Source: a virus. From it: a stretch of DNA of 64,000 nt. Under the pieces are notes generated by a model. That model did no database searches and was not told where the DNA came from. It was given only the letters and a program-made list of their open reading frames with translations. A program made the translations under genes and the position numbers. Positions 7,645-53,847 of the stretch are shown here, in pieces (the stretch's first letter is position 1; each line of letters starts with the position of its first letter). The stretch covers positions 12,396-76,395 of IMG/VR virus record IMGVR_UViG_3300047444_000198; one strand, given 5' to 3'.

Positions 7645-7645
7645 G

Positions 7646-7719
7646 TCGGGGTGACAGGACTTGAACCTGCGACCTCTGGTCCCCCAGACCAGCGCGCTAA
7701 CCAACTGCGCCACACCCCG
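7646..7719 (-). tRNA. tRNA-Pro(GGG)
   Basis: CGGGGTG acceptor, D arm GCGCAGTTGGTTAGCGC, anticodon arm CTGGT-CTGGGGG-ACCAG, T arm GCAGG-TTCAAGT-CCTGT, 3' CACCCCGA; CCA not encoded. Confidence 0.95.
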
Positions 7720-9646: not shown

Positions 9647-10118
9647 GCAACGCCTCCAGGGCCATCTCGGCGTGCGCGACGGCTTGGTTGATCTTGGTCG
9701 GGTCGATGATCCGGGAGTCCCGCCAGACAGACAGGTTGAAACCCGCCATCATGATCTCGACCTCGGCGTAATCGATCAGGTCGCGCAGTGGCAGCGACAC
9801 GAGACGCGCACTGACACTGACGGGGTCAGGAGGCTGGTGGCGGTTCCGACGTACCAGGCCCACGCCACGCTCCGATTTCCGCAGGGTCGAACTCCAGATT
9901 CCGAACGCCCAACTGCTTGTACACGTCCATGTCGGGCTCAGGATTGGGGTGACACCGGCCCACCTGGATGGCCCTGTGACCGATCCTGAGCCGCACACCA
10001 CTACCGAGGCGCCAGGGCTCGGCCCGCTCCCGGAACCAGGCCCGCGACACGATCTTGGATTCGTCGGTGTAGCTCTCCCACCCCACGTACACGCTACGGA
10101 CGCTCTTGAGGGTCAGCA

Positions 10119-31600: not shown

Positions 31601-32917
31601 CGTACGCCTCCATGATGGCAAGCTCGGCCTGGTACTTGACCAGAGCCTCGGCCGCACCCTTCGCGAGCCGGTTGTAGGCATCAGCGGCGCGGTTGACGTT
31701 CTGCGTCAGGCTCGCCCGACGTGCACCCTCGGCATGTGCGGCCTCGTCGCGCAGGTAGCGCTGGACCGTGGCCTCGACCGCCTCCAAGAGGGGCCGCACG
31801 TACGTCTTGGGCGCTCCACCCATGGCTCGGGCTAGCTCGTAGTCCACCGTGCCGTCCTGGGGGATCACGCCGTAGACCTGGCTGTTGCTGTCGCCCTTGG
31901 CGTCGCGCTCGGCCTGGTTGCGGGCGTACCAGTAGCCCTTGGGCTGGCCCTGGTCGTTGGTGTGGATGTACCGGATGGCGTACTCGTTGCCCCGGTAGAC
32001 CAGCGTGCCCTCTACGAACACGTCATCGGTGCTCATGGCACACACCATGAGTCCACCGGTCACCTTGCCGTGGTTCACGTCCATCTGGACGTTGGCGACC
32101 CGCTCGTGCCACTCGGGCACCGGAACGGAGAGGGGGAGAGTTTCCTCAATGTCGTAGGTCTTGGTCATGAGCACAAGTCTACGCTTGTTGAGTCACCACC
32201 GCATGAGGCAAACGGACCATTTCGTCAGGTTCCGTGTCAGTGTCAGTGGCCTCGATGGTGGGATCACCGTGCAGAGCAAACGTGTGCTCGCAAGGCTCAC
32301 CCTTGGGCGGGGCGAACATGATGCGCTCCACGTCCAGCCGGTCGAGAGCATCCAGCAGAGGCACGCACGCCGTGACCATGGCACCCAGGATGAACAGGGC
32401 GCCGATCATCGCCGCGACCTTGTGCGTGCCCTCCGCGAAAGCGCCTGTGTACACGTAGCCGCCGACCGTGAACAGGACACCGGTAGCGCCCATCCAGCAC
32501 CAGAAGCGTTTGCGCTGGCTCATCGTGCGTGCACCGGGCAGTGCTTCCCCTCGTCGTGCAGGATGCCACCGCCCCGAAGCTCACGGCCGGTGCACAGAGA
32601 CTCCATGGCCTCAGCACACACGGCCGGATTGTCGAACGTGAGCAGGAGCGTGTACGGACGGGTGCCGTACTCAGCTTTGGCTACGAACGCCACATTGATC
32701 CAGTGCTCACGGTACCGATGCTCTTGTGTCACTCGATCAACCCCCGGTGTCGTGCTTCGCCCTCCAAGCAGTCTCGCATGAGGTCGGTTCCCCAATCCTC
32801 TCCAAGACGACGACGAAGCTGGGCGTCCGTCATGTCGCGCACGTCCAAGCCGTTGATCATGGCCTGGCCCTTACGGGGACGCTCACCGGGTCCACGTGTC
32901 TGCTGGTAGTCGCTCAC
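25656..32917 (-). other. Array of about 20 small hypothetical genes, most with their own promoter unit
   Basis: For example 25847-26026, 26098-26466, 26463-26729, 27616-27816, 27867-28082, 28290-28589, 28728-29126, 29132-29521, 30087-30725, 30722-31309, 31596-32168. Confidence 0.7.
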
Positions 32918-32973
32918 GATCACAGTCTACCCGCCATTGTGTTGACTCACCATGAGCCATCCGGCCCATCTTG

Positions 32974-33028
32974 TGGAGCACCGGGGAGTCGAACCCCGCT
33001 AGCTACCCATGCCCCGATGGAGTGCCCC
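32974..33028 (-). ncRNA. 55-nt tRNA-like RNA with Ala-type acceptor stem (G3:U70) and full T arm but no canonical D/anticodon arms
   Basis: GGGGCAC pairs with GTGCTCC then discriminator A; T arm CGGGG-TTCGACT-CCCCG; intergenic. Confidence 0.6.
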
Positions 33029-33364
33029 GTCAGTGTCAGTGCTCAGGCCAGCACGAAGAACGCCAGCGTGACCACCACCATGGCCGCAAACAACACCTTG
33101 CCAGCCAGGCGATGGCGTACTGACCAGGGGTAGCGCTTGCGGTAAGCACGGCGCTTCACTCGGTACCGGCGCTTGACGTCACGGTCCCAGGCTCGGCGCA
33201 TCTTGCGCTCACCACGCCGTGTCTCGACCACGTGCATCCGGCCGTAGACGTCTACAGGCACCTTGATCGAGCAGAGGGGCACGTCGCGAGAGGACCCAGC
33301 GGTGCCGTTGACGGGAGGAGGAGGACCAGTCAACGGCACCGATGAGGGTGGGGGAGGAGGCAAG

Positions 33365-53780: not shown

Positions 53781-53847
53781 GAGACGACCCTACTCCATCG
53801 TTGTGTCATCAGGTGCACTGACACTGACAGGTGTCAGTGTCAGTGGC

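Follow-up and report, generated by a model that had tools for sequence, protein, structure and literature searches.

That phages supply tRNAs and, in rare cases, tmRNAs is known; phage RNAs that are probably chargeable with alanine without being able to decode are almost undescribed. The sole published phage analogue found in the literature is mycobacteriophage DS6A, which carries a “TLD only” (CDS-less) tmRNA (PMC4131195, PMC11915505). According to Hudson and colleagues, a molecule similar to the DS6A TLD strongly inhibited tmRNA in E. coli, perhaps by titrating SmpB (PMC4131195, PMC11915505). Tag-less tmRNAs are also encoded in organelles, both as mitochondrial forms and as the ~65-bp plastid forms of Mallomonadaceae (PMC4131195, PMC11915505). 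Alanine minihelices can be charged by AlaRS (Francklyn and Schimmel 1989, as cited in PMC9976931).

The units described below form a new, compact 55-nt family that shows clear covariation, occurs in unrelated soil and water phages, and is missed by standard tRNA, tmRNA, and Rfam annotation; such units sit unannotated inside seemingly empty intergenic gaps. The founding member comes from a 76.4-kb IMG/VR virus record (estimated completeness, 79%; GC content, ~0.63), DNA of which was found in soil and rhizosphere metagenomes and in which the recognizable genes encode terminase, portal, Ku, SNF2 helicase, DUF3987, and amidase. Among the sequencing runs listed as carrying this DNA, none is of RNA. 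The window referred to throughout is the whole stretch of this record that was analyzed, 64,000 nucleotides in length.

Fold and genomic setting of the mini-tRNA

The element and its immediate surroundings, all on the minus strand, consist of the following features (position i of the element corresponds to window coordinate 33029 minus i):

33043-33045 (-): TGA stop codon of the upstream gene, whose product is a small, basic protein and has a hydrophobic tail
33029-33041 (-): copy of the 13-mer repeat CACTGACACTGAC, directly 5' of G1; context, outside the family unit
32974-33028 (-): the whole 55-nt anticodon-less alanine-type mini-tRNA gene, seen in the sequence and matched by family model R1; one genomic copy
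33022-33028 (-): 5' strand of the acceptor stem, positions 1-7, with G1 at 33028 and including G3; 7/7 pairs with 32975-32981
33021 (-): U8, invariant throughout family alignment A4
33007-33020 (-): small CCAT/ATGG hairpin where a D arm would be, positions 9-22; 4 bp here, 5 bp in relatives
32999-33006 (-): 8-nt linker in place of the anticodon arm and variable loop, with the self-complementary core TAGCTA
32982-32998 (-): T arm, positions 31-47, with a 5-bp stem and a TTCGACT loop
32975-32981 (-): 3' strand of the acceptor stem, positions 48-54, including U70; pairs with the 5' strand and covaries in the family
32974 (-): discriminator A73; the next bases are CAA, so that CCA is not encoded here
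32952-32969 (-): dyad hairpin belonging to the promoter cassette that follows, 4 nt past the discriminator
32924-32929 (-): TAGACT, the -10-like hexamer of a repeated promoter cassette, followed 6 nt later by a GTG start

The 7-bp acceptor stem is contiguous with a 5-bp T stem that is closed by a TTCRANN-type loop, as in tRNAs, and its third pair is G:U (G3:U70; the other strand of the stem runs from 32981 to 32975). Only 23 nt lie between the 5' strand of the acceptor and the T arm, and these take the place of the D and anticodon arms with a single 4-bp hairpin. There is no anticodon stem-loop, as just 8 nt separate the small hairpin from the T stem, and the element contains neither a canonical D arm nor an AGGUC-type variable loop. 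The original prediction of a 7-bp acceptor stem with G3:U70, a discriminator A, and a perfect T arm thus proved exact on the minus strand at 32974-33028, and the 23 nt with a CCAT/ATGG hairpin that it had placed at the site of the D and anticodon arms are seen in the sequence. The GGGGCAT heptamer inside the element, at 33009-33015(-), also pairs 7/7 with the 3' strand of the acceptor, which would create an alternative 42-nt minihelix. This pairing is probably a coincidence of the hairpin sequence, because it is not found in the relatives.

The mini-tRNA is located in a 119-nt gap between small genes that form a minus-strand array. From 5' to 3' on that strand come the stop codon, 1 base, the 13-mer, the mini-tRNA, 4 nt, the dyad with the -10-like hexamer, and a 64-aa gene, which begins with GTG and has its stop codon at 32729-32731. 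Units of the dyad type recur through the early region (repeat families D1, D2, and D4), and the previously noted near contact between the 3' end and a promoter unit was borne out, the dyad beginning 4 nt after the discriminator. The 13-mer had likewise been reported directly 5' of G1; that is true of this phage but not of the family, as no relative's locus has it. Exact copies of CACTGACACTGAC number 24 in the window versus 0.28 expected. They are oriented block-wise along the genome, often follow stop codons, and sometimes form close inverted pairs; examples are the copies at 33029-33041(-), 9809-9821(+), 53816-53828(+), and 53833-53845(-). The 13-mer resembles the stoperators of cluster A mycobacteriophages and is a putative protein-binding site; it is absent from the relatives with ~70% amino acid identity.

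No promoter of its own was found for the mini-tRNA in this phage, and the phage's own genome carries no SmpB, RtcB, or CCA-adding enzyme that might indicate a pathway. Comparison of ten neighboring proteins with PHROGs and Pfam assigned no family, a DNA search of the 1-kb region against isolated phages gave no match, and a search of metagenome contigs with the protein of the neighboring gene yielded no relative. Among contigs from four soil or rhizosphere runs, one strain variant, from run X20, spans the mini-tRNA; the differences listed for it are too few to bear on selection. A strain-variant contig in this run (95-99% identical) maps to both sides of ~32918 with ~124 letters of its own in between, so that in this strain the 64-aa gene seems to have undergone an insertion or rearrangement near its beginning.

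Chance occurrence was assessed with a pattern that specified a T arm with 5/5 pairs, a TTCRANN loop, G53:C61, and a contiguous 7/7 acceptor stem with its 5' strand 12 to 35 nt upstream. One element in the 76-kb genome fits this acceptor/T-arm pattern, and 2 of 300 dinucleotide-preserving shuffles contained any (mean, 0.007), with neither G3:U70 nor A73 being imposed in the test. A chance match was ruled out by these shuffles. The single-sequence fold energy of the mini-tRNA is unremarkable (z = -0.63); its support is geometric and comparative rather than thermodynamic.

Standard finders pass over the element. On the window, ARAGORN called tRNA-Pro(GGG) alone and did not call the mini-tRNA, and Rfam at curated thresholds likewise returned tRNA-Pro(GGG) and nothing more. 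The Rfam tRNA model RF00005 had no match at the mini-tRNA, loose thresholds included, and the tmRNA model RF00023 at loose thresholds gave it 12.5 bits versus a threshold of 47. The relatives scored 22 to 26 bits with the tmRNA model (22 for L160 and 25.9 for L295), also below 47; the control TLD-only units in L155 and L159 passed that threshold with 60 and 65 bits, respectively. The tRNA-Pro gene, located at 7645-7719(-) upstream of the terminase gene, is the only tRNA gene of this phage at that place. The corresponding place in relatives is occupied by tandem tRNA-Pro(GGG) and tRNA-Ala(GGC) genes, 20 nt apart (L135:1449-1618, IMG/VR 3300047322_000252).

Relatives, covariation, and alanine identity

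Three pattern scans of viral and metagenome collections yielded further members of the family. The probe that proved most useful covered only the linker CTGATCAG and the T-loop core and placed no constraint on the acceptor stem or hairpin. It retrieved six distinct gapless 55-nt relatives; all sequences that fit the frame had perfect stems, and the other matches were ordinary tRNAs. The family frame has a constant length of 55 nt and comprises three helices of 7, 4-5, and 5 bp, U8, a GG loop, and G3:U70, all of which are present in the mini-tRNA. The covariance model R1 scored the window element at 75.1 bits (E = 2.4e-15), the element itself being among the four sequences from which R1 was built. 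The relatives are as follows:

L142:6925-6979: 55-nt relative
L196:9818-9872: 55-nt relative
L251:6825-6879: 55-nt relative
L292:1146-1200: 55-nt relative, independent of R1, fits the same frame
L295:778-832: 55-nt relative, independent of R1, fits the same frame
L302:6333-6387: 55-nt relative, independent of R1, fits the same frame
L160:398-451: 54-nt relative, 47 bits with R1

These relatives come from at least 5 phage lineages and from soil, sediment, and water metagenomes. Among the fetched loci, carriers outside the G002/G003 lineage have no clear protein similarity to this phage, no conserved neighbor gene was found across the family, and the flanks of the unit are not conserved among relatives. 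Since the carriers are mostly unrelated, the unit either has spread among unrelated phages or is old. Each of the three carrier genomes that could be searched whole has one copy. In this phage and in L196, L251, L292, L295, and L302, the unit lies a few to ~30 nt past a stop codon; co-orientation with the neighbors combined with this position was observed in 6 of 8 lineages. In L196 and L251 the unit is found upstream of terminase genes and nearly fills the gap. In the G002/G003 lineage, it is antisense between two genes and has a promoter-like site (a TG-extended -10) ~65 nt upstream. CCA directly follows the discriminator in 4 of 9 family members, these positions having been free in every probe. 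Searches for additional members gave nothing at E <= 1e-5 with R1 in 151 sampled Actinomycetota genomes and no match for an identical acceptor stem with a short spacer in viral contigs.

The closest relatives of the phage, IMG/VR 3300047322_000252 (complete, 118 kb) and 3300046454_000251, have no unit at the syntenic spot (L007 and L008; ~70% amino acid identity): there the upstream gene is directly followed by the next one, with the 64-aa gene homologue at another location. A T-loop motif scan of the whole genomes of three relatives detected a homologous 55-nt unit elsewhere in two of them. The unit of the close relatives aligns with the present one without gaps at 62% identity, and the differences are compensating pairs in the acceptor stem, T stem, and hairpin. 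Compared with L007:4240-4280 and L007:7100-7243, the block that comprises the 13-mer, mini-tRNA, promoter cassette, and 64-aa gene (32729-33042) is an insertion, the 64-aa gene homologue being ~3 kb away in the closest relatives; gene cassettes seem to move between promoter units.

Alignment A4 contains seven sequences (55-nt units) in 55 gapless columns. Standard pairs fill 99.2% of its cells, and 8 of the 17 pairs are changed on both sides; none of 500 shuffles reached the observed values, and slid partners gave 0 to 3 such pairs. The pairs of the acceptor and T stems are never broken. Acceptor pairs 4:69 to 7:66 vary freely and covary, T-stem pairs 31:47 and 32:46 covary, and in the hairpin pair 11:20 appears as AU, CG, or GC and pair 12:19 as UA or CG. 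The invariant features are G1, G2, G3:U70, U8, the first two pairs of the hairpin, its GG loop (G15 and G16), and the T-loop. The constancy of G3:U70 is meaningful because the neighboring pairs 4:69 to 7:66 vary. Furthermore, the invariant G3:U70 and the occasional G:U or U:G pairs fit one strand only, which indicates selection on an RNA and not on a DNA repeat. The original prediction had named lack of covariation as a ground for giving up the element; the family alignment shows the opposite, and the mini-tRNA is very likely to be a functional structured RNA.

The alanine identity set of bacteria consists of A73, G2:C71, G3:U70, and G4:C69 (PMC9976931). The mini-tRNA holds all four, so that the sequence, together with the invariant G3:U70, upholds the earlier description of an alanine-type tRNA-like unit without an anticodon arm. 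In A4, G3:U70 and G2:C71 are found in 7/7 sequences each, G4:C69 in 6/7, and A73 in 5/7 (6 of 8 distinct sequences if L160 is counted); two family members carry G73 rather than A73.

The element could in principle be a nonfunctional remnant, either of a phage tRNA-Ala gene after loss of the anticodon arm or of an attachment site that lay inside a tRNA or tmRNA gene of the host. Two unrelated AT-rich phage contigs hold a true tRNA-Ala(UGC), a normal gene that includes the 24-nt 3' half, with exactly the acceptor stem and T arm of the element; the closest relatives have no such element at the syntenic spot, and a full tRNA-Ala(GGC) is present in relatives and missing from this phage. However, the gapless 55-nt architecture is maintained in at least 5 phage lineages with compensatory changes and unbroken acceptor and T stems. 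The full tRNA-Ala of the relatives differs from their mini form in the acceptor stem and T-loop, so the latter is not a recent deletion product of their tRNA-Ala(GGC). Among 185,579 bacterial and archaeal species, each represented by one genome, none contains a match to the 24-nt 3' half, which speaks against the alternative raised at the outset, a decayed tRNA or attachment-site remnant identical to the 3' end of a host tmRNA, and no integrase (PF00589 or PF00239) was detected in the 76-kb record, which is 79% complete. Given the conserved architecture, the covariation, the absence of the 24-mer from the genomes searched, and the lack of an integrase in the record, this explanation was rejected as highly improbable. 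In a scan of the genome collection, the same acceptor stem was found, among the matches listed, only in full-length tRNA-Ala genes of 69 to 74 nt; it is present in the tRNA-Ala of Propionibacteriaceae, Saccharibacteria, and Bacteroidales.

The scans also brought up other shortened forms, none of which is called by ARAGORN. One type combines an alanine acceptor, a canonical D arm, an 8- to 10-nt linker, and a T arm and looks like a tRNA-Ala from which the anticodon stem-loop was excised; it occurs in phages with GC contents from 0.34 to 0.68. Further mini forms of 54 to 59 nt include some with a TATAAT box just upstream (L138 and L139); in this other subfamily, at L138:619-675(+) and L139:930-987(-), TGCTATAAT ends 11 nt before G1 and looks like a putative dedicated promoter of a small-RNA gene. 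In addition, many viral contigs contain tRNA-Ala-like genes of 57 to 60 nt that keep the UGC anticodon arm and miss the D arm; these look like D-armless phage tRNAs. Examples of the first and the last type are as follows:

L220:5512-5569 (+): mini form with D arm
L208:3472-3530 (-): mini form with D arm
L252:1859-1917 (-): mini form with D arm
L200:1385-1443 (+): mini form with D arm
L175:1689-1747 (-): D-armless tRNA-Ala(UGC)-like gene
L173:2487-2545 (+): D-armless tRNA-Ala(UGC)-like gene
L202:4989-5047 (+): D-armless tRNA-Ala(UGC)-like gene
L237:505-563 (-): D-armless tRNA-Ala(UGC)-like gene

Proposed processing, charging, and roles

We infer that the mini-tRNA is a small stand-alone RNA that is processed by host RNase P, charged by AlaRS, and probably acts on ribosome rescue by tmRNA-SmpB; the probability of this combined reading is put at roughly 0.45. 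Transcription would probably occur by read-through from the upstream early gene. Host RNase P would then cut at G1, just past the 13-mer, and the 3' end would be trimmed to A73 and receive its CCA from the host CCA-adding enzyme. Charging with alanine by host AlaRS is proposed because the acceptor stem carries the bacterial alanine identity set, and alanylation, taken by itself, is a reasonably probable step. RNase P, the CCA-adding enzyme, EF-Tu, and the enzymes that modify the T arm need no more of a tRNA than its acceptor/T-arm helix. The GG hairpin loop could dock on the T-loop, and EF-Tu and the T-arm modification enzymes should then take the helix with the docked loop for the upper half of a tRNA. 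Once charged, such a molecule would be unable to read a codon. To our knowledge, tmRNA-SmpB is the sole anticodon-independent route into the ribosome, and for this reason the mini-tRNA would most likely act in trans, on the ribosome rescue of the host. Competition with tmRNA, either for SmpB or for stalled ribosomes, is one possible mode, and tag-free rescue is another. Considered separately, tmRNA-SmpB is a tentative and somewhat doubtful choice of target.

Alternatively, the unit might serve in cis, as mRNA punctuation or a 3'-end signal at which RNase P (and RNase Z) would cut the polycistronic mRNA behind the upstream gene, or which would protect the 3' end of that mRNA, the small RNA being a by-product. 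It is co-oriented with its neighbors a few to ~30 nt past a stop codon in 6 of 8 lineages, and no separate promoter was found for it in this phage. Its best Rfam bit score, moreover, is with mascRNA (RF01684; 24.2 for the mini-tRNA and 23.7 for L292), an RNA that defines the 3' end of MALAT1, although these scores are far under the threshold of 42.5 bits. RNase P has no need of G3:U70, yet this pair is invariant among varying neighbors; CCA is encoded in four members; and the G002/G003 unit is antisense to both of its neighbors and has a promoter-like site of its own. The release of a small RNA is favored over a pure cleavage signal on account of this antisense unit with its promoter-like site, the alanine pair, and the encoded CCA, and a purely cis-acting function appears unlikely. 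The released-RNA and mRNA-signal roles are not mutually exclusive.

A released RNA could also be a putative decoy or substrate for something other than tmRNA-SmpB: a sponge for a toxin that attacks acceptor ends, or a donor or competitor in nonribosomal alanine transfer to the cell wall or lipid. The element keeps all the acceptor-end features and none of the decoding ones, it is spread among unrelated phages in the manner of an accessory gene, and phage tRNAs can counter tRNA-targeting defense systems. A general acceptor-end decoy, however, would have no use for alanine identity, no partner gene is conserved beside the unit, and we know of no alanine-specific acceptor-end toxin. This possibility, too, is hard to favor.

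The linker raises a different possibility. It exists in three versions, CTGATCAG, CTGGCCAG, and, in this phage, GTAGCTAG with its core TAGCTA, all of which are self-complementary, and the differences among the three variants are compensatory (window 32999-33006(-), L142, L196, and L160). As a palindrome of 8 nt has no room to fold back, the pattern hints that two molecules pair with each other or that the site matters at the DNA level. In a dimer, a shared linker duplex would replace the missing anticodon stem. Pairing through the linker is a lead only, hinted at by three sequence variants, and the predicted homodimer energy is not evidence, because any palindrome gives such a value. An 8-nt palindrome is also present in the linker of an unrelated mini form, L169:1630-1688. 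A rather unlikely reading is that of a new phage small RNA, not a reduced tmRNA, that would be charged with alanine, would exist as a monomer or as a tail-to-tail dimer paired through the linker, and would act on a host target that is not phage linked.

Whichever role the mini-tRNA plays, it is an easily synthesized object with which to ask whether phages shut down or re-route ribosome rescue and how the translation machinery treats the aminoacylated top half of a tRNA.

Comparison with TLD-only tmRNAs and other tRNA-like RNAs

The DS6A TLD-only unit, which is not annotated in its record, was located at L171:28478-28557. It shares with the present RNA the G3:U70 pair of the acceptor stem, A73, and a canonical T arm; both are devoid of an anticodon and of a tag reading frame, lie in a short intergenic gap, and are missed by ARAGORN-type annotation. 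DS6A is a phage of a high-GC actinobacterial host, a trait that the present phage presumably shares. The DS6A TLD is, however, 80 nt long, and its D-loop analogue, unpaired and of the tmRNA type, precedes a long P2-like hairpin, whereas the present RNA, with 55 nt, has a short hairpin straight after U8 and then the 8-nt linker. Two units of the DS6A type, L155:2315-2395(+) and L159:3575-3657(-), were encountered as well; they are TLD-only, 78 to 83 nt long, and uncalled by ARAGORN. Each consists of the tRNA-like domain alone, with a D-loop analogue, a P2-like hairpin, and a T arm.

SmpB binds tmRNA through the D-loop analogue and the P2 helix. In the same analysis, an unpaired D-loop analogue and a P2-like hairpin were seen in DS6A, L155, and L159 and are absent from the present RNA. 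Family model R1 does not match the DS6A TLD, so that the likeness to tmRNA is one of resemblance. An mRNA-like domain (resume codon and tag reading frame) is absent, too, from this 55-nt unit with its nonconserved flanks. The label “tmRNA TLD-like” in the original prediction is therefore apt only in part: tmRNA is the best match in the tRNA clan of Rfam, but the score is far below the threshold, the D-loop analogue and P2 are missing, and R1 misses DS6A. The present family may act like a TLD-only tmRNA but, for the latter two reasons, cannot be filed as one.

Among the other known tRNA-like RNAs, the tag-less organellar tmRNAs resemble the present RNA in being alanine type, tRNA-like, and ~55 to 70 nt long and in having no message part. 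They descend from the organelle's own tmRNA and function with imported SmpB, whereas the likeness of the phage RNA to tmRNA is one of resemblance. The mascRNA (RF01684) is of similar size, tRNA-like, without a normal anticodon arm, and located at the 3' end of a longer transcript; it differs in being a eukaryotic nuclear RNA and in having no alanine identity. This likeness is one of shape only, with a score well under the threshold. Bacterial tRNA-Ala shares with the present RNA the acceptor identity set, U8, and the T arm but has, in addition, an anticodon stem-loop, a canonical D arm, and an AGGUC-type variable loop. Finally, the synthetic minihelix-Ala (Francklyn and Schimmel 1989, as cited in PMC9976931) is an AlaRS-charged acceptor/T-arm helix with G3:U70, made as a 35-nt laboratory construct; the phage RNA has 23 extra conserved nucleotides, the GG-loop hairpin included. 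Set against these systems, the mini-tRNA is a conserved phage gene with a proposed function, and its structure is a new variation on the rare TLD-only, tmRNA-like theme.
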